From UHGV virus genome UHGV-1329780: a stretch of 40,311 bases of DNA. The stretch is one strand, 5' to 3'. The notes beneath the pieces are model-generated. The model was not told the DNA's origin, did no database searches, and worked only from the letters and a program-made list of their open reading frames with translations. This document shows, piece after piece, positions 11,446-34,615 of this stretch. The stretch is from a virus. Position 1 is the first letter of the stretch, and every line of letters begins with the position of its first letter. Made by a program: the position numbers and the translations under genes.

Positions 11446-11482
11446 TTGACATTTAACGCACTAATTATTACCTTTCAGGTAA
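11446..11482 (+). promoter_or_regulatory. Candidate promoter (-35 TTGACA) with TTACC-N5-GGTAA dyad over the -10 region, upstream of the tRNA cassette
   Basis: TTGACA at 11446-11451; dyad TTACCTTTCAGGTAA at 11468-11482; AT-rich context. Confidence 0.4.
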
Positions 11483-11804
11483 GCAAAGAGTTCATTCCGG
11501 TTATTAACCTGACTGGCTTGTCGTTAAATTGAACAGGTGGGGTGAGCTTTTATTTTGAGCAGTACGGTGTATGGCACATGCGCCGATAGCGGTCTGGATA
11601 CGTTTAAGGGGCACCCTCCCTTGCTCGGGCAAACGAACCAGGTAGCCGGAATGTGCAAGTCGAGCGGTTTTATTCCGCGCACGTGGATTCACCATCCCGG
11701 CGATTCGGTGTGACACCTCGGAAGAGACGAGGGTGCAACGATGAGAGCATTTATGGAGCCGCGACAAAGTGTGGTGCCTTAACAGGCTAAGTGCTCTCAG
11801 CGTT

Positions 11805-11881
11805 GTGGCATTAGCTCAGTTGGACAGAGCAACCGCCTTCTAAGCGGTTGGTCGCAGGTTCGAATCCTGCATGCCGCGCCA
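11805..11881 (+). tRNA. tRNA-Arg (anticodon TCT, reads AGA)
   Basis: Hand-folded cloverleaf: acceptor GTGGCAT/ATGCCGC (one G-U pair), D stem GCTC/GAGC with A20 in the D loop, anticodon stem ACCGC/GCGGT, loop CTTCTAA giving anticodon TCT, T stem GCAGG/CCTGC with TTCGAAT loop, discriminator G and encoded CCA. Confidence 0.9.
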
Positions 11882-12103
11882 GAATCACGCCTAAGGACCG
11901 TGATGCCAGAAGTTCCAGGGGCTTGGCGGTGATGGTTTCCCTTGAAGGACTATCACCGCCCTTTTTACAGCAGGACGCCATTGCGATGACTTCATGCTGT
12001 AAACCCGTACAGCCACGGAAGGCATAACTCATTGCTTCCAGTTCGCCCGGTTCGCCGGGCATTTTTTTGCTTGATGACCGCAAATTACCTTAAAGGTATA
12101 ATC

Positions 12104-12922
12104 ATGAAAAACTTCAAGGTAATTAGCATGTTTGAATCGTTCAAAGAGCTGTTTTTATCTACTGCCAATACTGCCGTGAATCGAGCCAAAAACCCTGTGC
12201 TTGGTGCTTTTGTTATGTCCTGGTGCGCCTTCAACTGGAAATCAATTCTTTATCTATTTTTTAGCAAATCAAACATAATAGATAAAATTTCATATATCTC
12301 AGATAACAGCACATGGAAAACTGTTATGTTTTATCCATGCTTATCTGTAATTGCTATCTGCTGCCTATTACCATGGGTAAACAATATCATTAACGTATGG
12401 CAAGCAAAGCCTCTTGATAATAATGACTCAATCGAAAATCACCTGAAGGCAAGAAAAATCCAGCGTGAAACCAGACTGCAGAGGTTATTAGCTAAAAAAG
12501 ATGTTACATACGACAAAGTTAAGACTGGCGCGGAAAAAGACATCCAAGAGATGAAAGAAGAGATTATTCGATCAAAGAATAGTATGGGGGAATTGACTGC
12601 CGAGTTGAAAGCTAAAGATGACGAATTGAGATCCGCCAGTGCTCAGTTAGCAGCTCTAAATCATTCATTAAAAGAGATATCGGAAACTCTGGGAAGAATG
12701 AATGAGGCATATAAGACCCTCCAAAATGATTTCGACGAATACAAACTCAAATACCCTGAAAAATCTCAAATAAAAAGCCTTGCACTTGGCAACGGCCAAA
12801 CAATTAGCAACTTTTTGGAGCAACACAACTTATCCGGATTAAAATCTGGTAAGCCAGACGTTTTTCATAACTTTGGTGTTCTATCTGGATTATCAGGTTT
12901 CGAGGATAAAAATAAAGACTAA
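12104..12922 (+). CDS. AT-rich moron protein: two predicted transmembrane helices plus C-terminal coiled coil (candidate superinfection exclusion / abortive infection protein)
   Basis: About 272 aa from ATG 12104 (alternative ATG 12128); hydrophobic segments PVLGAFVMSWCAFNW and VMFYPCLSVIAICCLLPWV followed by a Lys/Glu/Leu-rich heptad region; AT-rich with 5 of 8 Arg codons AGA/AGG and several ATA codons; opposite strand to the flanking late genes. Confidence 0.6.
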   Translation: MKNFKVISMFESFKELFLSTANTAVNRAKNPVLGAFVMSWCAFNWKSILYLFFSKSNIIDKISYISDNSTWKTVMFYPCLSVIAICCLLPWVNNIINVWQAKPLDNNDSIENHLKARKIQRETRLQRLLAKKDVTYDKVKTGAEKDIQEMKEEIIRSKNSMGELTAELKAKDDELRSASAQLAALNHSLKEISETLGRMNEAYKTLQNDFDEYKLKYPEKSQIKSLALGNGQTISNFLEQHNLSGLKSGKPDVFHNFGVLSGLSGFEDKNKD

Positions 12923-14394
12923 GCATATGGATCGTACTCGGTAAGCGCCTTGCCTTGCTGGTTCTGCTGCCCGGGAATTCGCAGACGCTTTGACACAGGG
13001 AAAGCAAACGTCAGCAGTAGCGCATCGCCTTTACCAGGCGAACGCCCAAGTCGTTCTTTGATATCTTCCTTCGGTTCGATAACGATTTTACCGTCCACGC
13101 GAACTTTGTACTCTGCCGCCGACAGATCGTCCGCTGTTTCCTGGTCATCCAGCATCCCGCCCAACCTCAGCCATGTCTTGCATGAGTTGAACATCTCCCC
13201 GCGCTTATTGAGCATCTGAGGGTCAGTTGACGCACCACCGAACGGAACAAGTTGCCATGTGCGCCCCCAGCCGTCACCGATTGACTTCAGACCGGTTCCG
13301 TAACCGAAGTCGATGAACACCGCGTCAGCCTGATACTGGTCTTCAAAGTCAGCGATACGCTTCGCCATAATCAGATCGTCAGTGGTCTTGTTGCCAGTCC
13401 ATAGCACCTTACTATGCAACCCCTGCCGCAGGTATATCACCGCGTCATCAACGCCTGAATATGCCGGGTCAACACCGATTATCACCGGAGCATGTGCCAC
13501 CTGCGCAGCGGTTACCACCCGTTTCATTGCCTCATCAGTAAGACCGGTAGGGATAAACTGCAATTCAGATGCATCAGGGAATATGCCGCGCACACGGATT
13601 TTAACGAAGTCGCTGTCTTCCCCGTAGTCATCAACCCATTTCTGCAACTGCTGTTTGTTAGTACCTTCCACCGTCCGGCTGTCAATCTGCGCAGTTTTCC
13701 AGCGGTGTTTGTATTTGCGGAAACATTCGCGAAAACGCCCGGTATTACGTGTAGGGTTTCCGAACGCCACCCAGATAATCTCAGTGTCTTCGTCCGTAAG
13801 CGCACCCTCAGCAACTTCCCACACCAGATCCGCAATGTTCGACGCTTCATCGAATACCACGATGATGCGTTTGCGCTCGTTGTGTAGTCCGGCGAATGCC
13901 TCAGTGTTGTGCTCAGACCAGGGGATTGCGTCAGCTCGCCACCGCTTGTCGTGCCCAGGGTCATTGCTGTACATCGCGGTAGCGGTACAGGTAAACCAGT
14001 CTTTCGTGATAGCAAGGTTCGACCACTTGATAATTTCCGGCCAGGTCTTCGTTCGTAGCTGGTTGTCGGTGTTGGCGGTCACCACGACCTTACAATCCTC
14101 GCAAGTGGACATGCCCCAGTTGATCAGCATTGAGATGAATGCGGATTTACCAATACCGTGACCAGAAGCGCGTGCCAGCATAAGCGGCTGATAGCGCGTC
14201 TCGGGATTCTGCAGGTGATCACGTATCTCTCGGAACGCATCGGCCTGCCACTGACGTGGGCCGGTAGCATGTGCCAGTTCAGTCCCCTCTTCCCCCCAAG
14301 GGAACGCATAGAGGGCATAACCAAGCGGATCGTGAGTGAACCCTGCAATATCCTCGATTAACTGCTCTTCAGGAGATAACACGGTATCTGTCAC
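12919..14394 (-). CDS. Terminase large subunit
   Basis: 491 aa; Walker A-like ARASGHGIGKS near the N-terminus, acidic nuclease-type C-terminal half; immediately downstream of the small subunit with overlapping stop/start. Confidence 0.8.
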   Translation of the reverse strand: MTDTVLSPEEQLIEDIAGFTHDPLGYALYAFPWGEEGTELAHATGPRQWQADAFREIRDHLQNPETRYQPLMLARASGHGIGKSAFISMLINWGMSTCEDCKVVVTANTDNQLRTKTWPEIIKWSNLAITKDWFTCTATAMYSNDPGHDKRWRADAIPWSEHNTEAFAGLHNERKRIIVVFDEASNIADLVWEVAEGALTDEDTEIIWVAFGNPTRNTGRFRECFRKYKHRWKTAQIDSRTVEGTNKQQLQKWVDDYGEDSDFVKIRVRGIFPDASELQFIPTGLTDEAMKRVVTAAQVAHAPVIIGVDPAYSGVDDAVIYLRQGLHSKVLWTGNKTTDDLIMAKRIADFEDQYQADAVFIDFGYGTGLKSIGDGWGRTWQLVPFGGASTDPQMLNKRGEMFNSCKTWLRLGGMLDDQETADDLSAAEYKVRVDGKIVIEPKEDIKERLGRSPGKGDALLLTFAFPVSKRLRIPGQQNQQGKALTEYDPYA

Positions 14395-14987
14395 TGATTA
14401 CCATCCTGACGTTCTTTGAGTCGCTTCCTGGCTGCTGCTATGCGATCAGCAATTGTCACATTCACATTAACATCCAGACGTTCTTTGAACGCGTTGACAT
14501 CAACATGCTTACCAATCAGCTCAAGGTTCTTCACCTTGTCAGGCCATTTAATTTTTTTGAGGATTGTCTCTATCGAATCCTCGTTCATGTTCATGATGGT
14601 CGATGACAGATCAAAGCCACTAAGCGTAGTGCGCCAGATTTTCGGCCACTCACGGATTGGTTTAAGGCTCCCATCGTCGTTGAGGATGTCGATCACGTCC
14701 ATCTGGTCGATCTCCACCAGACGCATGAGAACGTAATCAGCACTGACGCGCATTCGTTTGTTGCGCTCCTCCATCAGCTCGGCAATCCGTTTTTGAATGC
14801 GTTCATCGCGCATCATGACACTGGCTTTAACTGCCGCTGTATTTGGGGAGAATCCTGCGTTAATCGCTGCCTGAGTCTGGTTTTCAGGCGTTTTGATGTA
14901 TGACTGGCAATAAGCCTCCTGCATTGCTGTTAGTGGCTTAAATTGCGTTGATTTGCGTTTATAGGTTTTAGGTTCAGCAGGCATCAT
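14391..14987 (-). CDS. Terminase small subunit
   Basis: Probable start at tandem ATG 14987/14984 (MMPAEPKTYKRK...) rather than the upstream ORF-track start; helical, basic N-terminal DNA-binding-like region; overlaps the large subunit start. Confidence 0.65.
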   Translation of the reverse strand: MMPAEPKTYKRKSTQFKPLTAMQEAYCQSYIKTPENQTQAAINAGFSPNTAAVKASVMMRDERIQKRIAELMEERNKRMRVSADYVLMRLVEIDQMDVIDILNDDGSLKPIREWPKIWRTTLSGFDLSSTIMNMNEDSIETILKKIKWPDKVKNLELIGKHVDVNAFKERLDVNVNVTIADRIAAARKRLKERQDGNQ

Positions 14988-14994
14988 AACCACC

Positions 14995-15026
14995 GTGGTA
15001 ATAGTTACCGTTGTGGTAATAGTACC
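14995..15026 (-). repeat. Tandem direct repeat GTGGTAATAGT(T)ACC x2 just upstream of the terminase small subunit start
   Basis: Copies at 14995-15009 and 15013-15026, between an intrinsic terminator and the terS start; candidate late-promoter or regulator binding site. Confidence 0.4.
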
Positions 15027-15029
15027 ATG

Positions 15030-15056
15030 CAAAATAAAGCCGCCATAGTTGGCGGC
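15030..15056 (-). terminator. Intrinsic terminator (minus strand) between the nin-like block and the terminase genes
   Basis: Hairpin GCCGCCA-TAGT-TGGCGGC at 15039-15056, followed on the minus strand by TTTATTTTG. Confidence 0.5.
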
Positions 15057-15105
15057 AGTATTCAAACCCCATCAAATTCATCATGCATAATCTACTCGTG
15101 ACATG

Positions 15106-15447
15106 TCACACTATTAATTTCGTTTCATGCCAGCCTTTAGTCACCCAGCATTGCGAGTCACCATTACACGGGCATGAATTAACTGGAACTCTCTCGCCGC
15201 ACTTACCGCAACATTTTCTGCTGATCGATTTTATACGCCCGCGCACGCGTGCATCATCCTGGCGGATCAGTAACGCTATATACTCACCAAATTCGTAAGG
15301 CGCACGCCCGGGGCGACGCGTGGCACAGTTACGCTCCAGCATTTCAATTTCCTGAGCATCAAGCACAATCTCCAGTTTACGCACACCAGATGCAGCTTGT
15401 CTGGCTCTCTGAGCGGCTTTGCGCTCTGCTGCTGATTTAGCCATCAA
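15106..15447 (-). CDS. Small basic protein with C-terminal Cys-rich (zinc-ribbon-like) motif; candidate late-gene regulator
   Basis: 113 aa; N-terminal basic/helical region (KAAQRARQAASGVRKLEI) and C-terminal CCGKCG...CPCNGDSQC cluster; last gene before the terminator and terminase operon. Confidence 0.4.
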   Translation of the reverse strand: MMAKSAAERKAAQRARQAASGVRKLEIVLDAQEIEMLERNCATRRPGRAPYEFGEYIALLIRQDDARVRGRIKSISRKCCGKCGERVPVNSCPCNGDSQCWVTKGWHETKLIV

Positions 15448-15718
15448 TATTTACCTTTATCGCGAACACCTTTACCGGTTTATCTCCGAAGTGCGGATGT
15501 GTGATTGTCTTGATTTCATATCCGTCATACGGAACATCTATTCTGCGGCTGGAATCGTCGCTCCTCGGATATCCCTTTGTGATAATCAGGCGGTCATACT
15601 CCCGGAACATAATTCGCTTATTCCAGTAGTCATTACACAGGCGATACTCTTCCGTTTTCTCTCCAGACTTCATCTGGTCGAAATATTCACCGTTAACTGC
15701 CAGTTGAAGGTTAGCCAC
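15437..15718 (-). CDS. ASCH-like (PUA-fold) domain protein
   Basis: GTG start at 15718 preceded by AGGAGG at spacing 6; overlaps the upstream stop; N-terminal pattern NGEYFDQMKSGEKTEEYR typical of ASCH domains. Confidence 0.45.
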   Translation of the reverse strand: MANLQLAVNGEYFDQMKSGEKTEEYRLCNDYWNKRIMFREYDRLIITKGYPRSDDSSRRIDVPYDGYEIKTITHPHFGDKPVKVFAIKVNIDG

Positions 15719-16565
15719 GGTTAACCTCCTGCGGCGGTTCTGGTAGCCGCATCCAGTGTGACGGTTTCCACGACGCACCAGGAATTATCCACCCATCATT
15801 AGCGTCAGGATGACCCGGGATGTAAGTCGCCCATTTCATTCGCCAGTCACCTTTCCTGTCAAACTCCACGGCAACAAGAACGGCTGTTTTGGTATCCGGC
15901 ATTCGCTCACTACAGCTTATCCAACCATCCGGAGTTACCGGATAGTTGCGCATTGCGACCTTTAATGCCTCATAGAAGCACTCTTTCAAATTGTTGAACT
16001 GACACCCATTTAGAGGGCCGTGTTCAGTCAGCATGTTGTGTAATTTCCATGCCGCGTCGTTTACTTCTCTGGATGACAGGGGAGGCAACTTGTAAGTTTG
16101 GCTTACAGGTTCGGCACCATGAAGCATGGCAGCACGGCAGGCGTTCCAGCCAGCTGTTCGCCCAAGCGAGTAAACTTCAGATGGCTCAAGATAATCAATG
16201 TCATGCCCGTCCTCATCGTCGTTCTCAGGTAATGCAGCAGGTACTACTGGCACTGGAGGGGCGGCATAAACAGGAATAACGTCCGATTGATCTTTATTGC
16301 TTTCATCCGTTAAAGCCCAGAATAATTTCCCGGCCGGATGTTTGAAAATATAAGCAACAGGCTCTGCTTCCAGTGATGCCAGCACGATACGCGCCAGCTC
16401 ACGCACAACTTCCGGCGGCGCGTAACGGTCATTCAGGTCATCCCACAGACGTAGCATGTTATCGCTACCAGGGTGAACATCCTCGTTAGTTCCGGCAAGC
16501 GCACTAATAACCTCATCGGCTGCCTCAATAATTTTCAGCGCTTGTTCTCTGGTAATAGTGGTCAT
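15711..16565 (-). CDS. DUF551-type C-terminal domain protein with Ea22-like N-terminal region
   Basis: 284 aa; C-terminal DGWISCSERMPDTKTAVLVAV...HWMRLPEPP matches the DUF551 pattern; N-terminal region shares LEAEPV and AALPxxVVP motifs with the 158-aa neighbour at 17686-18162. Confidence 0.55.
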   Translation of the reverse strand: MTTITREQALKIIEAADEVISALAGTNEDVHPGSDNMLRLWDDLNDRYAPPEVVRELARIVLASLEAEPVAYIFKHPAGKLFWALTDESNKDQSDVIPVYAAPPVPVVPAALPENDDEDGHDIDYLEPSEVYSLGRTAGWNACRAAMLHGAEPVSQTYKLPPLSSREVNDAAWKLHNMLTEHGPLNGCQFNNLKECFYEALKVAMRNYPVTPDGWISCSERMPDTKTAVLVAVEFDRKGDWRMKWATYIPGHPDANDGWIIPGASWKPSHWMRLPEPPQEVNRG

Positions 16566-16771: not shown

Positions 16772-16772
16772 A

Positions 16773-16994: not shown

Positions 16995-16995
16995 A

Positions 16996-17190: not shown

Positions 17191-17191
17191 A

Positions 17192-18764: not shown

Positions 18765-18825
18765 CTTTACCCTCACTTATCCACATAACTTATTGATTAC
18801 ATTGATAACTAAAAAGATCGTCGAT

Positions 18826-19170: not shown

Positions 19171-19173
19171 GAT

Positions 19174-19250
19174 TTACCTCTGAGGTAATTAAAAACCACA
19201 TAAGACATGAAATCAATAGAGTTTATAATATTTTGTTACCTAACAGGTAA
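19174..19250 (-). promoter_or_regulatory. Promoter/operator region with two TTACC-N5-GGTAA dyads upstream of the nin-like operon
   Basis: Dyads at 19174-19188 (TTACCTCTGAGGTAA) and 19236-19250 (TTACCTAACAGGTAA) in an AT-rich intergenic gap. Confidence 0.45.
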
Positions 19251-19287: not shown

Positions 19288-20064
19288 TTACTTGATAAAT
19301 CCTGCCGCCTTTCCCCGCCTGTATTCCTCCATCAGCCACTGCGCCGGTGTTATTCCCCCAAGGGTGGCGGCGTTAGGCATGCACCCGAAACTTCGCCCTG
19401 GTGGATGGTAAACGTCTCTCCCTGTGTCCGGAGGTGTACTCATGGGCTCTGGCTTTGCCTGTATGCTGATCACCGGATCGGGTATCTGCTGTCCGGAAGC
19501 CACCTTTTTCGCCCAATCATCGAGCAGCCTGCGCGCGTGTTTCTCAACCTCACTCTCGCTAAGCTGGCGCTGATACATTGCACGACGGGTATCACATACG
19601 ACCCAGTACATAACCGGATGCCGCCACGGGAATCTTTCGGGACCACCAGGATATAAACTTTTTTCCTTGCTGTACCGGTGAAACTCCGCCATCACATCGT
19701 CAATGGTGACGCCAAGAACCATCTTGCTGTCTTTGCACCACTTGATGAATTGCCCTGGCGACGGCCAGAACGGAGATTCACTGGCGCGGGCGTGGCGCAT
19801 ACCAGCGTTAACCTGTTCCATTGTAGTGATCCCATTCTCCAGAAACGCAAGCATCCATTGCTTACGGAATTCATTAAGTTTGTTCTGCTCCCTTATGGTC
19901 GAAACGCTTGCAGGAAATGCAGCCTGTAACTGGACAAATAGTTCATTGAAAATTCTAGCAACCTGCTCCTTTTTGCCATTGCTGTCACGCCGCTCTTCAT
20001 GCACAGCAACACCATGCTCACGTAAGCGATCGTACTCATTGAGAAGTTCTGGAGTTGATTTCAT
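19288..20064 (-). CDS. Replication protein P-like helicase loader
   Basis: 258 aa; by-eye match to lambda P blocks FPAS, NGITTMEQVNAGMR and PSPGQF; downstream of the O-like gene. Confidence 0.8.
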   Translation of the reverse strand: MKSTPELLNEYDRLREHGVAVHEERRDSNGKKEQVARIFNELFVQLQAAFPASVSTIREQNKLNEFRKQWMLAFLENGITTMEQVNAGMRHARASESPFWPSPGQFIKWCKDSKMVLGVTIDDVMAEFHRYSKEKSLYPGGPERFPWRHPVMYWVVCDTRRAMYQRQLSESEVEKHARRLLDDWAKKVASGQQIPDPVISIQAKPEPMSTPPDTGRDVYHPPGRSFGCMPNAATLGGITPAQWLMEEYRRGKAAGFIK

Positions 20065-21059: not shown

Positions 21060-21207
21060 TTTTTCCGCCCCTTTTTGTTATTGATATTGGCTATTTTGCA
21101 CAATTGGAAAATTTGATCAACCAGATTTGGTTTTTTATTACCCTTAAGGTGCGAATAGATATGAAAAGACCGCCGGATGGCGGTCTACAGAGGGTTGTGG
21201 CTGGATA

Positions 21208-21438
21208 TCATGAGTAGAAGAAGTATGCCAGTTCTGCTTTTGAGCGCAGCCATTGTCTTGTTTTACAGGCTTTAAAAAGCCCATTCATCAATACTTTACC
21301 TGGCATTTTGCGCTTGCCTGTTAAGTGAGTCTGGATATAGTGACTCGTCGTTCCGGCTTCCTGTGCGAAGGCTTCACGCTCATCCGGAGTAAGTGCAAGC
21401 CAGTGCTTTTTGAAATCGAAATGTCCGTTATCGCTCAT
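21208..21438 (-). CDS. Cro/CII-like small HTH regulator
   Basis: 76 aa; helix-turn-helix-like segment; first gene leftward of the divergent operator region. Confidence 0.5.
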   Translation of the reverse strand: MSDNGHFDFKKHWLALTPDEREAFAQEAGTTSHYIQTHLTGKRKMPGKVLMNGLFKACKTRQWLRSKAELAYFFYS

Positions 21439-21474
21439 AGCTATTGCCTGATATTTATTTCAGATAATAAATAT

Positions 21475-21537
21475 TCACCCATAAGGTAACAAAAATCAAG
21501 GATAGTTACCTATGAGGTGCATTTACCTGTTGGGTAA
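21475..21537. promoter_or_regulatory. oR-like operator cluster: three TTACC-N5-GGTAA-type dyads in the divergent intergenic region
   Basis: 21475-21489 TCACCCATAAGGTAA (variant), 21506-21520 TTACCTATGAGGTGC (variant), 21523-21537 TTACCTGTTGGGTAA (full), between the minus-strand cro-like gene and the plus-strand repressor gene. Confidence 0.55.
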
Positions 21538-21592: not shown

Positions 21593-22177
21593 ATGAAAAG
21601 TATCCAGGACGTCCGCAGGCAAAATCTCAACGACTTGATCGACCGTGAATTCAATGGTGTTCAGACGCGGATGGCAGAAAAACTTGGAACTCAGGCAAAT
21701 CTGGTAAACCGCTGGGCTCTTGGCAAGAAGGTTATCGGCGACCAGGTTGCACGAAAAATTGAAGCTGCCGCCAATAAACCCCGTAACTGGCTTGATATTG
21801 ATCGTTCGCTTTCTCAGGAGGGTTTTCAGCCTGTCGGCCCGAGCGATATAGGTCAGCTGGCGGCTCACAACCTGGAACGCTGGATGAGCGAAAGCCGCGA
21901 CCTTTCAACACAGGGAAAACTTCACCGCGCATCCGGCGTCGCCCAGGTGACAATCAGCCGCCTGTTAAACAATGAGGTCAGCGTTTCCATTTCCACCCTG
22001 GAGAATGTTGCATCCGCATTCGGGCGTCACGGATATGAACTACTGATTCACCCGCACGACCCTGCGACTATCAACTATGACCGCTCACGCTACGCATTGT
22101 TACCCGAAACCGAGAAAGCAAAGATCGAAAGTTACATTGAATTTGTCATCAACCAGAACGAAAAAAGCAAACAATAA
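21593..22177 (+). CDS. CI-like prophage repressor with two HTH domains and no S24 peptidase domain
   Basis: 194 aa; HTH-like segments (MAEKLGTQANLVNRWALGK and ASGVAQVTISRLLNNEVSVSISTLENVASAFG); no Ser/Lys autocleavage module evident; divergent from the cro-like gene and followed by a strong terminator. Confidence 0.6.
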   Translation: MKSIQDVRRQNLNDLIDREFNGVQTRMAEKLGTQANLVNRWALGKKVIGDQVARKIEAAANKPRNWLDIDRSLSQEGFQPVGPSDIGQLAAHNLERWMSESRDLSTQGKLHRASGVAQVTISRLLNNEVSVSISTLENVASAFGRHGYELLIHPHDPATINYDRSRYALLPETEKAKIESYIEFVINQNEKSKQ

Positions 22178-22234: not shown

Positions 22235-22311
22235 TTACCTTACGGGTAATTTTTTTAACTCATATCTATTGACACCAAACCAAATAAGCATAATTATTAC
22301 CCCAACGGTAA
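22235..22311 (+). promoter_or_regulatory. pL-like promoter with two flanking TTACC-N5-GGTAA operators
   Basis: -35 TTGACA at 22269-22274, -10-like AATTAT 17 nt downstream; dyads at 22235-22249 (TTACCTTACGGGTAA) and 22297-22311 (TTACCCCAACGGTAA). Confidence 0.55.
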
Positions 22312-23690: not shown

Positions 23691-24713
23691 ATGTCTATCA
23701 ATGCACTTAAGGCAGCGGCTACCGGTAACCAAGTTGCACATCATAATGAGAAACCAACAACTCTGGCCGGACTTCTGGCAGACCCAAAAATTAAAGCTCA
23801 GATGGCTTTGGCACTTCCAAAGCACATGACAGCAGACCGTCTGGCGCGCATAGCAACCACAGAGATCAGAAAGGTTCCAAAACTTGCATCATGCGACCAA
23901 GCCAGCTTCCTGGGGGCAATTATGCAATGTGCCCAATTGGGTCTTGAACCAGGCGGAGCTCTTGGACACGCTTACCTGATACCGTTCGACAAACGCCAGA
24001 AAGTAAATGGAAGATGGGAAACCGTATCTACAGAAGCACAGCTGATTATCGGCTATCGCGGAATGATTGACCTTGCCCGCCGCTCTGGGCAGATCCTGAG
24101 TATCTCGGCTCGTACCGTACATACAAACGACAAATTCAGCTACTCATACGGCCTGGAAGAAACGCTCGAGCATTTACCTTGCGAAACAGGTGACCGCGGA
24201 GAATTAACGCACGTTTACGCCGTTGCACGACTGAAAGATGGCGGAGTCCAATTTGAAGTTATGAGCCGGGCAGACGTTGAGAAAGTTCGTGCACTGAGCA
24301 AAGCCGGTAGCAGTGGCCCATGGGTTGATCACTTCGATGAGATGGCTAAAAAAACAGTAATTCGCCGACTGTTCAAATATCTTCCTGTTTCTATTGAAAT
24401 GCAGAAGGCTGTTGTTATGGATGAGCGCGCTGAAGCTGGACTTAGCCAAGATAACGCAGCTGTTATCACTGGTGAATATTCCGTAGTTGACGATGAGCGT
24501 CAACACCTGTCGCCAATTTCAGATTCAGAACGAGAAGAAGCTCGAGAATATATCATCGCGATACTTAATAGCCTGGATCCATCTGCTGAAGATGCAAAAA
24601 CGATGTTCAAGCGCGCTGAAAATGAAATTAACACCATGGCTGAAAAGCTCGGTGATGAATATCACCAAAAATTCATGATGACGCTTAACGATATGCGTCC
24701 AGAATTCGAGTAA
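23691..24713 (+). CDS. recT: RecT-family single-strand annealing protein
   Basis: 340 aa; AAGGAG RBS; RecT-like core (GLEPGGALGHAYLIPF, IGYRGMIDLARRSG); paired with the YqaJ exonuclease. Confidence 0.8.
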   Translation: MSINALKAAATGNQVAHHNEKPTTLAGLLADPKIKAQMALALPKHMTADRLARIATTEIRKVPKLASCDQASFLGAIMQCAQLGLEPGGALGHAYLIPFDKRQKVNGRWETVSTEAQLIIGYRGMIDLARRSGQILSISARTVHTNDKFSYSYGLEETLEHLPCETGDRGELTHVYAVARLKDGGVQFEVMSRADVEKVRALSKAGSSGPWVDHFDEMAKKTVIRRLFKYLPVSIEMQKAVVMDERAEAGLSQDNAAVITGEYSVVDDERQHLSPISDSEREEAREYIIAILNSLDPSAEDAKTMFKRAENEINTMAEKLGDEYHQKFMMTLNDMRPEFE

Positions 24714-27508: not shown

Positions 27509-27825
27509 AATTCACCCGTATAGAAACCATTTTCATGACGGTATGAGAGTATACCTTTAAGGTAATACCGTCACCTGTACCGACGAAAAATATGGTGTAG
27601 AGTGAATAGAAATGAATACATAAAAACAAAAACCCTCTGTAAAAACAGAGGGTTGAGTTAGTATCTGAATAGGAATGATTTGCTATGAGTTAGCTGTTAA
27701 TCATTCCCACTCAATTATTTACGGCATGCATAACCAATTGGCTGGTAACAACTTTCTGTAACCTGATTTTCACCGTACCGTTTTATATACCGTCACCGGA
27801 AATCAGTACCATGAAAAATGCCATG
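27509..27825. other. Candidate attP region between integrase and the lysis cassette
   Basis: Noncoding; ATACCGTCACC at 27565-27575 and 27787-27797, with GATACCGTCACG twice more inside the int 5' coding region (27239-27250, 27329-27340); inverted repeat GGAATGATT/AATCATTCC at 27672-27707; variant dyad ATACCTTTAAGGTAA at 27551-27565. Core crossover site not identifiable. Confidence 0.4.
27620..27652 (-). terminator. Intrinsic terminator ending the late/lysis operon
   Basis: Hairpin CCCTCTG-TAAAAA-CAGAGGG at 27633-27652 followed on the minus strand by a T-rich run (complement of AAAAACAAAAA at 27621-27632). Confidence 0.6.
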
Positions 27826-29232: not shown

Positions 29233-29623
29233 CGTCCTTTCCCCCCGGAATTAACTCGCGTGGATTATCGGAACGGTGATAGAGCCATATACCAATACGC
29301 ACAGCGACAATTGCTGACACGAATGCGCCTGCAGAGAAAACAATCCCTTTTTCAAAAGAGTCCTGCGTGATGGTAGGGATCAGGCTGGCTATGCCGATAA
29401 GAATTGATGCTGCTGGTTTGTAAAAGAGAAGGCCGCAAAGAAAGCTGAGCATCGACAGGAGCACCCGGCGACGGATGGGGTACTCTACTGCAGAGGTAAC
29501 AAAAATTACCGCCCCAGCCAAAGCCCCTAAAGCAACCTCCGGAGGGACACCTGCAATAACCGCAGCAAGAGAACCAAAACTAAGCAACTGATTTAATTGC
29601 TCACTTGTTACTTGAGCAGACAT
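29219..29623 (-). CDS. Holin-like membrane protein
   Basis: 134 aa with 3-4 predicted transmembrane segments; first gene of the lysis cassette after the tailspike. Confidence 0.5.
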   Translation of the reverse strand: MSAQVTSEQLNQLLSFGSLAAVIAGVPPEVALGALAGAVIFVTSAVEYPIRRRVLLSMLSFLCGLLFYKPAASILIGIASLIPTITQDSFEKGIVFSAGAFVSAIVAVRIGIWLYHRSDNPRELIPGGKDDGNA

Positions 29624-29904
29624 ACTTTCTCCTGTTTACTATCTATAAGCCAGTCAATTATTGATGACTAAACCCGCATAGTAAACCATATATGAATCAT
29701 TATTGTTCCATATCATATATCTCAATAAAAGTACTAATGATTTTACAGAACGAGCCAGCAGAGTGGGGGCAGTTGTACAGGAACCATAGACTTAATTTTG
29801 TATTTAATAATGCTATGGTGTAATAAACCTGAACATGTATTTAAAATACGTACTGATTCATGATAGAATTCAAAGATAACTTTTCACAAACTCCGTTTTT
29901 GATA

Positions 29905-29931
29905 CCCGCAAAATATTGCGGGCTTTTTTTT
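29905..29931 (+). terminator. Hairpin plus T8 tract at the tailspike 3' end (terminator-like on the plus strand)
   Basis: CCCGCAA-AATA-TTGCGGG followed by C and T8 on the plus strand, overlapping the tailspike stop codon region; preceded by an AT-rich 280-bp intergenic segment. Confidence 0.45.
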
Positions 29932-32900
29932 AACGTTCTTCCAGAGACTGAATCCGCTCTTTTATCTTATCCATTTCTCTGCGCTGCCATGCTGCCTCGA
30001 TATAGAATAAGAGATCAGGTCTGACCCCCCATCTAGATCCTGCTGGCGTTATTTCAACGCGCTCAATGATGTCTTCCATTACCATCACTGGATTATCATC
30101 CTCATCAACAATGATGCTCCCGTCATTATCAGTCAGCGGCATTTCCCTTTGGCCAGTAATGACATCATCATATACTGCGGGATAATCGTCATAGCAAAGA
30201 AAGGCATAGCGGCATGTTGTGCTTTCTTCTTCCATGAGTCCGTGAGAAATAAGAACATCACGAAGTTGCTGCGCGATTACACCATGATGTATCCTCGCCC
30301 CTTCTTCCCCCTTTATAGCGACAGCGTTCAGCCATTTATAAGCGATATACCTGACGTCACCCCAGGCATCCAGCAATGCTTCGTCAGGAGAGACCGGCTC
30401 TGTCTTTAATGTTCCGTCACTGGTAACCACAGGATTGGAGCCAAGATAAACTGTCGAGAACCTGTTTCCCGGACCACCAAGAGCATTTACATTATCAAGA
30501 TAAGGTTTAACATCTCCGTTCTCAAAAAGATGTTCGAGTGCGTTATATACCGCGCGACGTGGAGTACTGCTTCCGGAACCATGCAACGTTATCATTGCAC
30601 CATCTGCTGAAGACGTTGTTTCACCGCCGCTAACGATTAATCTCTGAGCGGTAACATCATCAGACGGTACTTTCTTCGCAATAATGGCGTAATTACCCTC
30701 AAGTTTGACTTCCGCGCGAACTTGTCCTGATGTACCTGCATGGACAGTCAGTGACTGGACGGCAACATCATCTGTGAAATCAACGGGTACAGGAACCGTC
30801 CTCACGCCTGACGTCGACATAAAAGTAGGAAGCGTTCTGTTAGGAGTGGCTCCGTAGACAAAATCCCTTGAAACAAATTCTTCCTGTTTAATTTTCACCC
30901 TGAAACAATACAAATCAGCCGGGTGACCATCGTGAACATAAGGATATTTTCTGTTGTTATCCCCTATGCTCCATGGGTTTAGAAAGTCTTCCCCACCGAA
31001 AATGTAGTACAGCCAGTTGTCTTTGATACAAACTGAACCAACACCAACCGCAGAGTTAACTATTCCGCCCTGATAAATCTGATCAGTAACATTAACCCAC
31101 TCTACATTATCCAGACTCCACTCATTGACGTTAACTCTGGTCATAAATGTTCTTGGATAATTTCCTGCATAACGGTTATCAGGTTCTCCTCCTTCCCACT
31201 CACCAAATGCGCGCTCACTGCCAAAAATAATCAGCTCATCGCCAACTTTGGCAAAAGGAAGGTTTGAGTGATGAACATTATTTGGGAAGCGAAGAGAATT
31301 CCATGATGTACCTAAATCAGAGCTTCTGTGCAATGAACTACCGGGTTGAGTACTTAATGTCCCCCTGGTCGTCAGATACAGAATGCCATCATAATATTTT
31401 ACACATGGCTCAGATGCATTCGCCTCATATTCTGCAGGTATGCGTCTGCGAACAAAGCTACCAGGAGAACCGAAAGCATCAGAGAAATAGAGTATCCCAA
31501 GCTCGCGTGGACCAATATCACCATTATGGTAGCCAACAGCAAAACTGTTATCGCTAATCGTCGCAAAACTGTGAATCTCAGTAACAGGAGTGCTTCCGTC
31601 AACAAAAGAAGGAATAGTTCCAAGACTGGTTTTTCTCCATGGTGACGAGTGAAATGATGTACCAAAACTCCAGTATCTACCCTCGTTATTCTGATCCACA
31701 TCCTGGGTATTTTGCGTCGTAACTGTAAAAGTATTTTTATCAATAACAGTAGTCACCGTCATATTCCCGGTAACACCTGTAACACCAGAGTTTGAGAAGT
31801 TGACAAAATCACCAGCAAATAATCCGTGATCAGTAATGCGAATATAAGCGACTTGCTGATTTGCTGCTTTCGTTATACCACCATAAACGCGAAGGCTGCG
31901 ACTCATTGGGCGATCCCACAACTCTGCAACCTGCAGTTTATTTCCGCTCACGGTCCGCGTCTCAATTACAGCAAAAAGGCGATTTCTGACAACCCCCATA
32001 CTCATGCAGTGATAGTTAACTGTGGGATAGTTTTCATGTAAATCTGTAAGCCATTCCGGCGTTGTCCAGGTCTTCCCGTCATCTCCTGAGCGAACCCATG
32101 CAACATGGAGGTTATTTACACCATGGCGGTCTCCAGCCATAAAAGGCGCATAGATGACATTGTCATATACAAACGTTTTATCCTGCGTCCAGGCGTTGTA
32201 CCACGGTGTATCTGTAATTTTAAATAACTCTCCCTGGATAAAATCTTCAGAAGCATAAAAAAGAGGCTGGCCCGGTATTCTCTCAAATAAAAAACGAGCA
32301 TTTTTAAATCGACTGACATCCGGAAGAGTTGATACTTTAAAAGTAAGCCCTAATCCGTCAATTTTATAACCTGGAGATGAGGCTTCAAGGCACGCGCTTA
32401 TTGCAGTGGAATCGTCATTTATACCATCACCAACAGCTCCAAAATCTTTGGGGCTAATAGCATCACGCATTTTATCCTGGAACGTTCGGTACACAGCCCC
32501 AGAACCATACTGAATAAACCAACCAAAACCACCAACAACCCCGGCGATTGCAGCATCGACATAATTACGCATTGAGCGATTATTTACAGCGTCCTGCTCA
32601 AATGATGGATCTGCAAGGTTAGAAATTTTGTTTTGCTTTGCATCGTAATATTTTGCAAGCAAAGATGGTTTCATCAATGCACGTCTGAACCACCCAAAAC
32701 ATTGCTGGATCAGCATCGTCAGGTAGTCAAAGGCATCTTCATGCACTTCGGGGAAAAATTTTCCCTGATTGCGAAGGTCTGTCTCCTGCACTACATCAAG
32801 CACACGATCTATCGTAATTCGCCATCCAGTAGCAAGCGGAGACGGAAGAACCACAGAACCGCCACTATAAGTGCCCGCCCCAGTTACCGTATAACCGGTA

Positions 32901-33049
32901 TCCAGAACCAATTCTGTTACGTTTCCGTTCAGGTCAGACACCTGAACAACCAGGTCTGATTTTCTGAAAATTCGAAAAGTATACGGAAACGATGTCGTAA
33001 CGCCGTTACCGGTGTATTCGTTGTGGTCAACTTCGGTTGAGACCGTCAT
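29930..33049 (-). CDS. Tailspike protein with Asp-box (sialidase-like) motifs and C-terminal intramolecular-chaperone-like domain
   Basis: 1039 aa; GGAG RBS; N-terminal particle-binding-type domain; DFGAVGDGINDDSTAI motif; Asp-box-like SGDDGKTW and SSDLGTSW; C-terminal segment with HHGVIAQQLRDVL resembling self-cleaving chaperone domains of endosialidase-type tailspikes. Confidence 0.7.
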   Translation of the reverse strand: MTVSTEVDHNEYTGNGVTTSFPYTFRIFRKSDLVVQVSDLNGNVTELVLDTGYTVTGAGTYSGGSVVLPSPLATGWRITIDRVLDVVQETDLRNQGKFFPEVHEDAFDYLTMLIQQCFGWFRRALMKPSLLAKYYDAKQNKISNLADPSFEQDAVNNRSMRNYVDAAIAGVVGGFGWFIQYGSGAVYRTFQDKMRDAISPKDFGAVGDGINDDSTAISACLEASSPGYKIDGLGLTFKVSTLPDVSRFKNARFLFERIPGQPLFYASEDFIQGELFKITDTPWYNAWTQDKTFVYDNVIYAPFMAGDRHGVNNLHVAWVRSGDDGKTWTTPEWLTDLHENYPTVNYHCMSMGVVRNRLFAVIETRTVSGNKLQVAELWDRPMSRSLRVYGGITKAANQQVAYIRITDHGLFAGDFVNFSNSGVTGVTGNMTVTTVIDKNTFTVTTQNTQDVDQNNEGRYWSFGTSFHSSPWRKTSLGTIPSFVDGSTPVTEIHSFATISDNSFAVGYHNGDIGPRELGILYFSDAFGSPGSFVRRRIPAEYEANASEPCVKYYDGILYLTTRGTLSTQPGSSLHRSSDLGTSWNSLRFPNNVHHSNLPFAKVGDELIIFGSERAFGEWEGGEPDNRYAGNYPRTFMTRVNVNEWSLDNVEWVNVTDQIYQGGIVNSAVGVGSVCIKDNWLYYIFGGEDFLNPWSIGDNNRKYPYVHDGHPADLYCFRVKIKQEEFVSRDFVYGATPNRTLPTFMSTSGVRTVPVPVDFTDDVAVQSLTVHAGTSGQVRAEVKLEGNYAIIAKKVPSDDVTAQRLIVSGGETTSSADGAMITLHGSGSSTPRRAVYNALEHLFENGDVKPYLDNVNALGGPGNRFSTVYLGSNPVVTSDGTLKTEPVSPDEALLDAWGDVRYIAYKWLNAVAIKGEEGARIHHGVIAQQLRDVLISHGLMEEESTTCRYAFLCYDDYPAVYDDVITGQREMPLTDNDGSIIVDEDDNPVMVMEDIIERVEITPAGSRWGVRPDLLFYIEAAWQRREMDKIKERIQSLEER

Positions 33050-33153
33050 GTTAAATCTCCAGATAGTCGCAGCACCCGTTGCGCCGCATATCTGGTTATT
33101 CTATTACCTGGAAAACCACATATGGATAGAAAGGCTGTAAATACGAATAGATA

Positions 33154-33168
33154 TTACCTTTCAGGTAA
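33154..33168 (+). promoter_or_regulatory. TTACC-N5-GGTAA dyad upstream of the LexA-controlled gene
   Basis: TTACCTTTCAGGTAA, identical to the dyad at 11468-11482. Confidence 0.5.
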
Positions 33169-33205
33169 TTTGCAAAACGTGCTGGATAGCAAACAAATTA
33201 TTTGA

Positions 33206-33225
33206 TACTGTATAAATATACAGTT
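33206..33225 (+). promoter_or_regulatory. LexA (SOS) box
   Basis: TACTGTATAAATATACAGTT: CTGT-N8-ACAG core at 33208-33223, 18/20 identical to the consensus TACTGTATATATATACAGTA; 20 bp upstream of ATG 33245. Confidence 0.8.
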
Positions 33226-33244
33226 ATTGCATGGAGAAGATAAG

Positions 33245-33502
33245 ATGCAGCAGTATCACTATCCACTGGAAGACGGATTTACCGAAAGGATTCACACGCC
33301 GGGAGGCGTCAGGTCACTGGTGGAGGGATCGCACTTGATGAAATTACTCCGGGATCTCGATAAGGATGGATTTAATGTCGATGGCCCACTTGCCGAACTG
33401 ACTGCACTGATTAACTACGTCACCAGCTCACAGATGTCTATGCGGGATCTGCAAACACATCTCGACTATTGTGCCGAACAATTACGAAAACAAACCAGAT
33501 AA
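33245..33502 (+). CDS. Small LexA-controlled protein homologous to the antirepressor C-terminal domain (candidate SOS-inducible antirepressor)
   Basis: 85 aa; GGAGAAG RBS; about 50 percent identical by eye over about 75 aa to the C-terminal region of the 33818-34528 product (IHTPGGV...LMKLL...DG.NVDGPLAELTAL..RDLQTH). Confidence 0.6.
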   Translation: MQQYHYPLEDGFTERIHTPGGVRSLVEGSHLMKLLRDLDKDGFNVDGPLAELTALINYVTSSQMSMRDLQTHLDYCAEQLRKQTR

Positions 33503-33533
33503 GGTTTGCAATTACCAAGTGGAGTGCTTATAT

Positions 33534-33548
33534 TTACCTTTGCGGTAA
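33534..33548 (+). promoter_or_regulatory. TTACC-N5-GGTAA dyad flanked by a 7-bp inverted repeat, upstream of a candidate promoter
   Basis: TTACCTTTGCGGTAA flanked by GGAGTGC/GCACTCC; followed by TTTACA (-35-like) and TAGTAAT (-10-like). Confidence 0.45.
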
Positions 33549-33639
33549 ATTTACATCGCACTCCTCTTGTGCCATAGTAATCGGGCACTGGCAAAATCCA
33601 GTGCCGGGATTGGCGTCCCGGGTTACTAAGTGGCGCATA

Positions 33640-33661
33640 CCACGCCAGACGTGGTTTTTTT
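33640..33661 (+). terminator. Intrinsic terminator/attenuator between the two antirepressor-like genes
   Basis: CCACG-CCAGA-CGTGG hairpin followed by T7; preceded by two further hairpins. Confidence 0.6.
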
Positions 33662-33817
33662 ATGCGTTAAGCACAGCTATATCCGAATTATGGTGGGCTG
33701 GGCAGGGGTCCGAAAGGACGCCGGTACCACTTAGGCCGGTACGCCAACCTTGTCCAGTTCACCACCAGTAATTGGCGTTGCGGTGGTGATTAAAATCACT
33801 AAGTGGAGATAACCACC

Positions 33818-34528
33818 ATGGCTAATGCTCAAACTTCCATCTTCAAATTTGAATCTGTTAACCCTATCCGTTCCATCATTATCGATGGCCAACCATGGTT
33901 TGTAGCCCAAGACGTTTGTAGTGCGCTGCGTATCCAAAACGTCACCCAAGCACTTGAAAAACTGGATGATGATGAAAGGTCTATGTTCAACATAGGGCAT
34001 GAACATCGTGCAATTTTTGACAGCCGAGTAAAAGAGATCAACATCATCTCCGAGTCAGGCCTCTACACACTGATCCTCCGCTGCCGCGACGCAGTGACAC
34101 CAGGCACTATCCCCTACCGCTTTCGTAAATGGGTTACGGGTGAGGTTCTTCCTCAGATCCGCCGCACCGGAAGCTACATTAAAAACTCGCTCCCGCAGGA
34201 AGAACGCATAAAGATGGTTGCCGACCAGGTAGCCAACGCCACGGCGTCAGCAGTAATGCAGGCGATGAAGATAGAGAACAAAACCTACAGCGCCCCACTG
34301 AAGCCCGGCTACCGCAGCCTGATTCATTCGCCGTCTGGTGTTCTCGGCCTGACGGAGAACTCACTGCTGATGAATCTGCTGAACCAGTTACAGGACGACG
34401 GGCACGACGTATCGGGCGCGGCGGCGGAGCTGACCACCATGTTCTGCTACATCGTCGGTGTGAGCAAATGCCTGCGTGATATCCAGACCCACGCGGAATA
34501 CATCAACGACAAGGCAGGGTTCTTCTGA
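33818..34528 (+). CDS. Bro-N domain antirepressor-like protein
   Basis: About 236 aa from ATG 33818 (GGAG RBS); N-terminal FKFESVNPIRSIIIDGQPWFVAQDVCSAL...ESGLYTLIL is a typical Bro-N pattern; C-terminal domain paralogous to the small protein at 33245-33502. Confidence 0.7.
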   Translation: MANAQTSIFKFESVNPIRSIIIDGQPWFVAQDVCSALRIQNVTQALEKLDDDERSMFNIGHEHRAIFDSRVKEINIISESGLYTLILRCRDAVTPGTIPYRFRKWVTGEVLPQIRRTGSYIKNSLPQEERIKMVADQVANATASAVMQAMKIENKTYSAPLKPGYRSLIHSPSGVLGLTENSLLMNLLNQLQDDGHDVSGAAAELTTMFCYIVGVSKCLRDIQTHAEYINDKAGFF

Positions 34529-34571
34529 CGGGCGGTGGCACAGGGATGTGCCTTTAAATAATTCTGTACAG

Positions 34572-34615
34572 ATTGCAGACTGTGGGTGAATAGCGTACTA
34601 TTACCTTAAAGGTAA
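34572..34615 (+). promoter_or_regulatory. Candidate promoter (TTGCAG-N17-TACTAT) with TTACC-N5-GGTAA dyad at the transcript start
   Basis: Dyad TTACCTTAAAGGTAA at 34601-34615 immediately upstream of an AGGAGG RBS and ATG 34628. Confidence 0.45.

Follow-up and report, generated by a model that had tools for sequence, protein, structure and literature searches.

Genome organization and regulatory genes

The window (the whole stretch of DNA analysed, 40,311 nucleotides, UHGV-1329780) represents the entire genome, circularly permuted, of a temperate podophage of the epsilon15/phiV10 type (Uetakevirus). [quoted passage not shown] In the gene map made in this analysis, 3,227 bases (8.0%) are non-coding. 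PerC-like and AlpA-like regulators are encoded in the genome. The regulatory genes, RNAs and the LexA box considered below are the following.

21208-21438, minus strand: gene for a Cro-like HTH protein of 76 aa, matching a PHROG annotated as transcriptional repressor
21593-22177, plus strand: rep, 194-aa repressor with an N-terminal HTH carrying the invariant helix NLVNRW and a C-terminal HTH_3-like domain
33206-33225, plus strand: LexA box TACTGTATAAATATACAGTT preceding ant
33245-33502, plus strand: ant, SPC32H-type antirepressor of 85 aa (5D50_E, E=1.4e-46)
33585-33769, plus strand: isrK-like sRNA (33585-33661) and C4 antisense RNA (33686-33769), leader of the second antirepressor gene
33803-34528, plus strand: second antirepressor gene, a Bro-N domain fused to a C-terminal domain homologous to Ant

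Rep is homologous over its full length to the repressor Rep of SPC32H (PDB 5D50_A, E=3.5e-42). It is 99.5% identical to the ZX5 repressor and 43% identical overall to epsilon15 Rep (gp38). Only HTH families were found in Rep by Pfam, with no Peptidase_S24 (autocleavage) domain. When the ZX5 repressor was overexpressed, free phage was lost and the transcripts for holin and endolysin fell by more than 99.9% (PMC9782041). The Rep of SPC32H is described as a tetramer that reportedly binds palindromic DNA, in a 'trans' DNA-binding mode (PMC9638917).

The core of the LexA box, CTGTATAAATATACAG at 33208-33223, lies 21 nt before the ant ATG, at the putative ant promoter. The isrK-like and C4 RNAs score 67.7 and 66 bits, respectively, both above the Rfam gathering scores. 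The Ant-like part of the Bro-N fusion is 43% identical to Ant over 74 aa (E=4e-16).

A 15-bp dyad is enriched in non-coding DNA

The exact dyad TTACCNNNNNGGTAA (TTACC-N5-GGTAA) occurs 10 times in the window against 0.06 expected from 100 dinucleotide shuffles. The exact copies start at 11468, 15005, 19174, 19236, 21523, 22235, 22297, 33154, 33534 and 34601. When one mismatch is allowed, 12085, 14987, 21475 and 27551 are added, giving 14 sites against 0.67 expected (shuffle maximum 3). Two further sites, 21506 (TTACCTATGAGGTGC) and 21138, have two mismatches. From a first-order Markov simulation of the intergenic DNA alone, the expected numbers are 0.004 for exact copies and 0.14 for copies with one mismatch. 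All 5-nt dyads with a spacer of between 0 and 12 nt were also enumerated de novo, and TTACC-N5 ranked top in the window with 10 copies; the second-ranked dyad, TACCT-N3 (7 copies), is the same site extended. TTACC-N5-GGTAA is also the top de novo dyad in epsilon15 and in a Klebsiella phage. The consensus is A-TTACC-WWWWW-GGTAA-T, with a centre that is A/T-rich and not freely varying.

The counts against shuffled controls bear out the genome-wide motif proposed in the preliminary description, as well as its placing of every copy between genes: all 16 sites fall in the 8.0% of the window that is non-coding. Twelve of the 13 sites listed there are exact or one-mismatch copies; the remaining one, 21506, has two mismatches, though it lies between two good sites of the rep/cro gap. 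The list had overlooked the pair 14987/15005 before terS and the degenerate site 21138. The distance of 3-13 nt given for sites close to start codons was roughly right, the measured values being 2 nt (14987), 3 nt (19174), 4 nt (12085) and 12 nt (34601). The proposal that the GGTAA arm doubles as an SD-like element fits some of the sites and not the others.

Position of the dyads relative to promoters and genes

The sites, regarded as candidate operators, are arranged as follows; strand is given where one applies.

11468-11482: exact; 91 bp upstream of the gp3-like gene and the portal/structural operon (minus strand)
12085-12099: one mismatch (GGTAT); within the spacer and -10 of the promoter-like ATGACC-17-TATAAT
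14987-15001 (one mismatch) and 15005-15019 (exact): pair with centres 18 bp apart
19236-19250 (distal) and 19174-19188 (proximal), minus strand: pair with centres 62 bp apart
21138-21152: degenerate, two mismatches; 15 nt past the cro terminator
21475-21537: OR-like cluster between the divergent cro-like and rep genes
22235-22249 and 22297-22311, plus strand: OL-like pair with centres 62 bp apart, downstream of rep
27551-27565: one mismatch; 43 bp upstream of the integrase start (27508, minus strand)
33154-33168: exact; between the divergent tail-fibre (29930-33049, minus strand) and ant genes
33534-33548, plus strand: exact; ends 1 bp ahead of the -35 of TTTACA-17-CATAGT (33550-33578)
34601-34615, plus strand: exact; followed after 12 nt by an accessory cassette of two genes (34628-34795 and about 34819-35256)

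The OR-like cluster consists of 21475-21489 (one mismatch), 21506-21520 (two mismatches) and 21523-21537 (exact), and 21475-21489 falls inside the spacer of the minus-strand promoter TTGTTA-17-TATTAT. The OL-like pair brackets TTGACA-17-AATTAT (22269-22297), the early-left promoter of the exo/recT operon. The other 62-bp pair brackets TTGATT-17-TTTAAT on the minus strand, before a DUF1064/resolvase-like gene (19170-18826). The pair 14987/15005 is placed between a terminator and the terS ATG (14984, minus strand). The imperfect arm of site 27551 reads GGTATACT on the minus strand. The promoter adjoining site 33534 would be the putative start of the isrK-like RNA. Site 34601 overlaps the last base of the promoter-like TTGCAG-17-TACTAT, which was read by eye and is not listed by the promoter scan. 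Downstream of site 12085 lies an accessory gene (12104-12922, phrog_4780) with no function assigned.

Candidate operators are thus present in nearly all gaps that bear promoters. Control would not be total, as no operator was found in the lysis-operon gap (29624-29929). At several 'late' sites no convincing sigma-70 promoter was found in the promoter scan.

The dyad is conserved and annotated in epsilon15-like phages

The same dyad is found at matching loci in six further Uetakevirus genomes, those of ZX5, phiV10, epsilon15, SPC32H, BUCT711 and Tyrion. It is also carried around rep by six enterobacterial prophages, whose hosts are Superficieibacter, Erwinia, Klebsiella, Citrobacter and Scandinavium. 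In the epsilon15 record (AY150271.2), exact dyads coincide with each of the seven features that carry the annotation 'protein_bind / repressor / lysogeny'. Site 11468 is syntenic with epsilon15 2931-2947 and with sites in ZX5, phiV10, SPC32H, Tyrion and BUCT711; site 33154 is syntenic with epsilon15 19895-19911; and the counterparts of the OL-like pair are epsilon15 32554-32570 and 32616-32632. Each of these epsilon15 segments is annotated as repressor-binding, and so are 35906-35922 at the DUF1064 locus and 12-27 at the terS pair. The 18-bp pair precedes terS in epsilon15 (12/30), phiV10, ZX5 and Tyrion as well, and the 62-bp pair at the DUF1064 locus is kept in 7/7 phage genomes. Overall, the 62 bp and 17-18 bp spacings are conserved in seven genomes. 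The OR-like spacings are 31 and 17 bp in the window phage and 30 and 17 bp in epsilon15 and SPC32H. The one-mismatch arm (GGTAT) before int is found in 7/7 genomes, and the degenerate site 21138 is syntenic with one-mismatch sites at phiV10 33112, ZX5 14207 and Tyrion 35365.

The dyad is therefore not new: it has already been annotated as the operator motif of the main repressor in epsilon15-like phages, and the finding is largely a known one; the preliminary description had not recognised it. In enrichment, annotated sequence, syntenic spacing and presence of a cognate Rep ortholog, the sites correspond to a predicted epsilon15-like (Uetakevirus) Rep operator set. The layout described earlier, with three sites in the cro/repressor gap and two around a pL-like promoter, was confirmed. 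The dyad said to precede the tRNA cassette does not do so directly: an opposite-strand ORF lies between 11468 and the tRNA, and by synteny this site corresponds to the gp3/portal site of epsilon15.

The dyads behave like protein-binding sites

Dyads could act as RNA hairpins with a 5-bp stem and a 5-nt loop, in processing, termination or translational control, or as sites for an activator of late genes. The four dyads lying 2-12 nt ahead of start codons, and the terS pair and site 21138, which come after terminators, would suit the former, and the PerC-like and AlpA-like regulators could supply the latter. The arms, however, are fixed in sequence. Of the one-mismatch variants, 30/36 are changed at the two outer half-site positions, and all 36 are uncompensated, against only four compensated arm changes, all in coding DNA and chance-like; none was found in intergenic DNA. 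The constrained A/T-rich centre also argues against a hairpin loop. The bias of mismatches to outer positions, the lack of compensated changes in intergenic DNA and the overlap with promoter cores together indicate that the sites behave like protein-binding sites. Since dyads flank divergent promoters on both sides and sit inside -35/-10 spacers, repression fits better than activation, and we consider hairpins or activator sites very unlikely.

Rep is the probable reader of the dyads

The dyads are very probably operators of the main repressor Rep (21593-22177), the ortholog of epsilon15 gp38 and SPC32H Rep. This assignment, already made in the preliminary description, is supported by the homology to 5D50_A, the identity with the ZX5 repressor, the seven epsilon15 features and the layout of the sites. 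The link between Rep and the operators in the window phage rests on GenBank features and second-hand descriptions. The helix NLVNRW is invariant among Rep proteins that are just 43% identical overall and that use the same dyad, and distant homologs of the Rep N-terminal domain with other helices occur without the dyad.

The Cro-like protein (21208-21438) could instead be the main or an additional reader, damping early and lysogenic promoters in lytic growth, in the manner of lambda Cro, which shares the CI operators. In addition to its PHROG match, its HTH segment AGTTSHYIQTHLT is invariant in six dyad-sharing phages at overall identities of 58-100%, and the de novo enumeration returned no second enriched dyad that might serve as a separate Cro site. 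The conservation of this protein is at least that of Rep, so comparison alone cannot tell which of the two reads the sites. Against such a role, the epsilon15 record attributes the sites to the repressor, many dyads are distant from the immunity region, at promoters without obvious need for Cro, and a Cro acting as exclusive reader would leave Rep without operators. Sharing of the dyad operators by the Cro-like protein may occur, as judged from sequence comparison; as a rival to Rep, we regard it as possible but rather doubtful.

That the dyad is the box of a recruited host transcription factor or nucleoid protein, a possibility raised earlier, appears most improbable of all. IHF sites are annotated beside some epsilon15 dyads, so host proteins do act nearby. 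The dyad, however, tracks the phage lineage and the rep gene across Escherichia, Salmonella, Klebsiella, Enterobacter, Citrobacter, Erwinia and other hosts, and it clusters around rep with fixed spacings. We know of no host factor with this consensus.

Proposed mechanism of repression and induction

With Rep as the preferred reader, two N-terminal HTH domains would read one palindrome, and a tetramer like that of SPC32H could hold two palindromes at once. Such a tetramer might span the adjacent pairs (17-18 bp; OR and terS) or the 62-bp pairs, which would bracket the -35/-10 elements of two promoters, the early-left one and that ahead of the DUF1064 gene. The operators that stand singly in or beside promoter cores would serve int, tail fibre/ant, the portal operon, the isrK/C4-antirepressor leader and the two accessory cassettes. 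In the lysogen, Rep alone would directly silence almost all transcription units.

Induction would proceed without repressor cleavage. DNA damage would take LexA off the box before ant, and Ant would then strip Rep from the DNA. Loss of Rep would also derepress the Rep-controlled Bro-N-Ant fusion and lead to feed-forward commitment, a step suggested by the operator before the isrK/C4 leader and the fusion gene. The motif with its enrichment, placement and conservation in relatives, as well as the protein homologies, are observed; we infer the Rep-DNA binding, the looping and the feed-forward step of this scheme. What is added, modestly, to the known operator set is the 62-bp pairs at two early promoters, the near-universal operators in promoter gaps and the operator before the isrK/C4-Bro-N-Ant module. 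For the phiV10/ZX5 branch, we tentatively suggest, at somewhat less than an even chance, a single-tier genome-wide Rep lock comprising 62-bp clamps, late, int and accessory promoters and Bro-N-Ant; a small LexA-triggered pulse of Ant would release further antirepressor and so make induction irreversible, and the operator-bearing accessory cassettes would be lytic-phase rather than lysogenic-conversion genes.

Comparison with other repressor systems

The core TTACC-N5-GGTAA and its A/T flanks are identical to those of the gp38 sites of epsilon15 (AY150271.2). The two phages share the loci ahead of terS, the gp3/portal operon and the post-replication nuclease gene, the locus downstream of rep and that in the tailspike/gp19 gap, with the same 62-bp and 18-bp spacings. 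Epsilon15 has three OL sites, against two in the window phage, and a lysis-operon operator that the window phage lacks, whereas the window phage has extra operators before the C4/isrK-Bro-N antirepressor module and two accessory cassettes, modules that epsilon15 lacks. With the Rep-Ant switch of SPC32H (PDB 5D50, 5D4Z) the window phage shares Rep and Ant homologs, the LexA box before ant, the lack of an S24 domain and the dyad; unlike SPC32H, it encodes a further Ant-like domain joined to Bro-N, in a gene preceded by small-RNA genes and a Rep operator. Tetrameric Rep, its 'trans' mode of DNA binding and its release by an Ant tetramer are known for SPC32H alone.

As in the C1/immI system of P1 (c4 RNA-icd-ant), a C4 antisense RNA heads an antirepressor operon behind a repressor operator. 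In P1, one C1 repressor acts at many scattered operators, one of which controls the C4-led antirepressor operon. C1 is not related to Rep, and its operators in P1 are asymmetric and 17 bp long, whereas the window phage has a symmetric dyad and an XRE-type HTH repressor.

As in lambda CI/Cro, three operators (21475, 21506, 21523) lie between divergent rep and cro-like genes, a second set is found at the early-left promoter, and the paired sites suggest cooperative binding. Unlike lambda, the window phage has no RecA-stimulated self-cleavage domain and would use the antirepressor route instead; it has two OL sites, not three, and operators also at late, int and accessory promoters. Many repressor sites in short intergenic gaps genome-wide are a feature shared with the gp71 stoperators of mycobacteriophage L5, which are asymmetric, act in an orientation-dependent manner and block elongation. 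In contrast, the sites of the window phage are symmetric and mostly overlap promoter cores.

A repeated dyad confined to intergenic DNA

The exact pattern TTACCNNNNNGGTAA was found in 10 copies in the window against 0.06 expected, and allowing up to one mismatch raised the count to 14 against 0.67 expected, which confirms the repeated dyad TTACC-N5-GGTAA of the preliminary description and shows it to be enriched over chance. All sites had been placed there in intergenic DNA; on the gene map of this report 16 of 16 sites do fall within the 3,227 non-coding bases (8.0% of the window), and simulation of intergenic DNA alone gave 0.004 exact copies. Twelve of the 13 sites listed earlier as perfect or near-perfect were exact or one-mismatch copies, the site at 21506 having two mismatches. 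The earlier list lacked the sites at 15005 (exact) and 14987 (one mismatch), both immediately in front of terS, and the site at 21138 (two mismatches). Among gaps of at least about 100 bp, 11 of 13 carry a dyad site; the two large gaps without one lie before the lysis genes and between convergent gene ends. When every 5-nt dyad with spacers of 0-12 nt was counted blindly, the top dyad was TTACC-N5, not only in the window but also in epsilon15 and a Klebsiella phage.

The 67 exact sites pooled from seven genomes (the window, ZX5, phiV10, epsilon15, SPC32H, BUCT711 and Tyrion) gave the consensus A-TTACC-(five T/A-rich positions)-GGTAA-T, with A or T as the central base in 132 of 134 strand-symmetrised cases. 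The possibility that the dyad acts as an RNA hairpin was rejected, as no compensatory changes were seen in intergenic DNA. The seven genomes hold 36 one-mismatch variants, which by definition are uncompensated; the outer two half-site positions account for 30 of them. Compensated-arm variants numbered four only, all in coding DNA and chance-like.

Conservation of the sites in a mosaic Uetakevirus

In the immunity region the window shares 97-99% identity with the E. coli phages vB_EcoP_ZX5, HEMP4, TL-2011b and phiV10, which belong to the genus Uetakevirus of epsilon15-like temperate podophages. Over 24.8 kb the best record was ZX5, with 98% identity over just 71% coverage, which makes the phage a new, mosaic member of this group. 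Its gene order is that of ZX5, phiV10 and epsilon15 in reversed orientation. A 2.5-kb virion gene leaves the right window end and resumes at the left end; the window is thus a complete, circularly permuted genome. In ZX5, the attP core is ATTGAGTGGGAATGATT and integration takes place at the 3' end of guaA (PMC9782041).

Landmarks in the window
27699-27715, minus strand: attP core ATTGAGTGGGAATGATT, matching the core given for ZX5
11805-11881, plus strand: tRNA-Arg (anticodon TCT)

Two terminator-like hairpins (11925-11960 and 12045-12060) follow the tRNA-Arg gene; a tRNA-Arg is found at the corresponding position in SPC32H.

Epsilon15, phiV10 and ZX5 carry 15, 14 and 14 dyad sites against 0.5-0.8 expected, and many copies were also counted in SPC32H, the Klebsiella phage BUCT711 and the Enterobacter phage Tyrion. 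When the sites were set against gene tables, the loci were found to be syntenic among the compared phages.

Conserved dyad loci
Before terS: two sites 18 bp apart
Before the gp3/portal operon: single site
Tail-fibre/ant gap: single site
Before int: single imperfect site with a GGTAT arm, in every genome
Downstream of rep: two sites 62 bp apart
Between rep and the cro-like gene: cluster with spacings of 17 and 30-31 bp
After the cro terminator: single site
Before the DUF1064 or RuvC-like gene: two sites 62 bp apart

A like arrangement was found around rep homologs in six prophages (Superficieibacter, Erwinia, Klebsiella, Citrobacter, Scandinavium). That the dyad is a host-factor box is unlikely, as the motif follows the phage and its rep gene through many host genera.

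At the int-proximal site (27551-27565) the same single mismatch in the GGTAT arm is present in seven of seven genomes, which suggests that this arm has been retained in its imperfect form for a second role as a -10-like TATAC(T). The pairs at two promoters (19174-19250 and 22235-22311) are spaced 62 bp centre to centre in all seven genomes, 63 bp being seen once, and the promoter core sits between both members of each pair. This fixed spacing of about six helical turns, the first of three features highlighted here, is compatible with a tetrameric repressor. No partner half-sites were found 62 bp from single operators. The gap before the holin/endolysin operon (29624-29929, 306 bp) has no operator in the window phage, nor has its counterpart in ZX5 and BUCT711; phiV10, epsilon15, SPC32H and Tyrion have one operator at the equivalent place. 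In these four phages the pre-lysis operator adjoins O-antigen modification genes that are absent from the window.

The repressor and its predicted operators

Rep, the 194-aa repressor encoded at 21593-22177, aligned over its full length with the SPC32H repressor of known structure (5D50_A, E=3.5e-42). Its identity is 99.5% with the repressors of phiV10 and ZX5, and 43% with gp38 of epsilon15. Only HTH families were matched in Pfam, with no S24 peptidase domain. All six aligned Rep proteins, divergent as they are, share an unchanged N-terminal segment N-L-V-N-R-W, compatible with recognition of a common predicted half-site. Distant homologs of the N-terminal domain only (Paraburkholderia, Hydrogenovibrio, Thiomicrospira) have other residues at this segment and no dyads nearby, a weak contrast given the bias of a locus search seeded on that helix peptide. 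The test of helix-operator covariation is likewise weak, as every full-length Rep homolog found has both helix and dyad, and only the distant N-terminal-domain homologs, whose helices differ and which lack the dyad, provide contrast.

When the repressor of ZX5 was overexpressed, free phage disappeared and transcripts of holin and endolysin fell by over 99.9% (PMC9782041). SPC32H Rep is reported to be a tetramer on palindromic sites, with DNA-binding domain pairs coming from different dimers (PMC9638917), and to be freed by an antirepressor that is itself tetrameric (PMC9638917; PMC9986798).

The cro-like protein (76 aa, 21208-21438, minus strand) may well read the same operators, as in lambda. 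Its sequence is better conserved than that of Rep, with 58-100% identity and an HTH segment that does not vary, and enumeration of dyads found no separate Cro-type repeat.

A 17-bp hyphenated inverted repeat of the dyad's form was reportedly presumed by Kropinski et al. in 2007 to be the gp38 operator. Seven features in the epsilon15 record AY150271.2 are labelled "protein_bind, repressor, lysogeny" (12-27, 2931-2947, 19895-19911, 32479-32494, 32554-32570, 32616-32632 and 35906-35922), and an exact dyad copy coincides with each of the seven. The record has no features for the three epsilon15 dyads between rep and gene 39 (33341-33402) or for those at 24704, 26882 and 35969; the public epsilon15 annotation is therefore incomplete. 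Dyad sites are not annotated in the public phiV10 and ZX5 records, operators are not described in the ZX5 paper (PMC9782041), and full-text literature searches returned nothing direct on the motif or on operators in Uetakevirus.

The epsilon15 annotation, the synteny and the homology of Rep together support the earlier proposal that the dyads are operators of the phage repressor. As a predicted operator, the dyad is already annotated for Uetakevirus; new here are only the undescribed mosaic relative and the operators at modules that epsilon15 lacks. The three features highlighted here are refinements of a known system and not a new kind of system. The E. coli phages of the phiV10/ZX5 group are now added to the epsilon15 operator map. 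The main value of the analysis is as a check: the operator set and the immunity logic had been read correctly from raw sequence without tools.

Predicted operators at promoters

Predicted promoters at operator sites
22269-22297: early-left promoter TTGACA-17-AATTAT, downstream of the rep terminator and bracketed by operators 22235 and 22297
Minus strand: DUF1064 promoter TTGATT-17-TTTAAT, on a plan like early-left (operator, 19 nt, promoter, operator)
Site 21475, OR-like cluster: within the spacer of minus-strand promoter TTGTTA-17-TATTAT
Site 12085: inside accessory gene promoter ATGACC-17-TATAAT, with the imperfect arm contributing to the -10
Site 33534: stops one base short of isrK promoter TTTACA-17-CATAGT
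Site 34601: second accessory cassette, after TTGCAG-17-TACTAT, a promoter-like site read by eye

The proximal operator at 22297 begins at the final -10 base of the early-left promoter. At DUF1064 the proximal operator shares one base with the -10, and the ATG lies 3 nt beyond the operator. The promoter TTGTTA-17-TATTAT would drive the cro-like gene, and the start point of TTTACA-17-CATAGT agrees with the 5' end of the isrK-like RNA. The late-gene sites (terS, portal operon and tail fibre) showed no convincing sigma-70 hexamers, and the hexamers of the PRM-like and ant promoters were not fixed with confidence. At terS (both sites) and at 21138 the dyads directly follow terminators; a roadblock role is therefore possible there. 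Nearly every transcription unit is predicted to be under direct repressor control, the second feature highlighted.

A Rep operator was also seen in the promoter-like region of both accessory cassettes, 12104-12922 (plus strand; phrog_4780) and 34628-35256 (plus strand; phrog_8607 and phrog_5954), PHROGs families whose function is not known. With operators at both, the cassettes would be shut off in the lysogen and come on during infection or after induction, an unusual pattern for morons. A defence-system identity for these genes was considered and discarded, the weak coiled-coil matches being taken as spurious.

Two predicted antirepressors and induction

Features of the antirepressor region
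33206-33225, plus strand: near-consensus LexA box TACTGTATAAATATACAGTT, directly before ant
33245-33502: ant (85 aa), matching the SPC32H antirepressor 5D50_E (E=1.4e-46)
33585-33661, plus strand: isrK-like Hfq-binding sRNA (67.7 bits, above the Rfam gathering score)
33686-33769, plus strand: C4 antisense RNA (66 bits, above the Rfam gathering score)
33803-34528, plus strand: Bro-N antirepressor, after the isrK/C4 RNAs

The two RNAs stand in tandem between operator 33534 and the Bro-N antirepressor gene. Over its last 74 residues (C-terminal domain, 160-233) the Bro-N protein shares 43% identity with Ant (E=4e-16), the SPC32H-type product of a stand-alone gene 300 bp upstream. Two Ant-like domains are therefore present under different controls, predicted to be LexA for ant, and a Rep operator with small RNAs for the Bro-N fusion. 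Loss of Rep may then free the second antirepressor. In P1 immI the order is repressor operator, c4 RNA and then ant; the operator-isrK/C4-Bro-N module of the window resembles it, here within an epsilon15-like podophage. This second, repressor-controlled antirepressor behind isrK/C4 RNAs is the third feature highlighted, and it could sharpen induction. CTG-N10-CAG also has weaker matches, one behind the tRNA at 11997 and another at 21448 between rep and cro.
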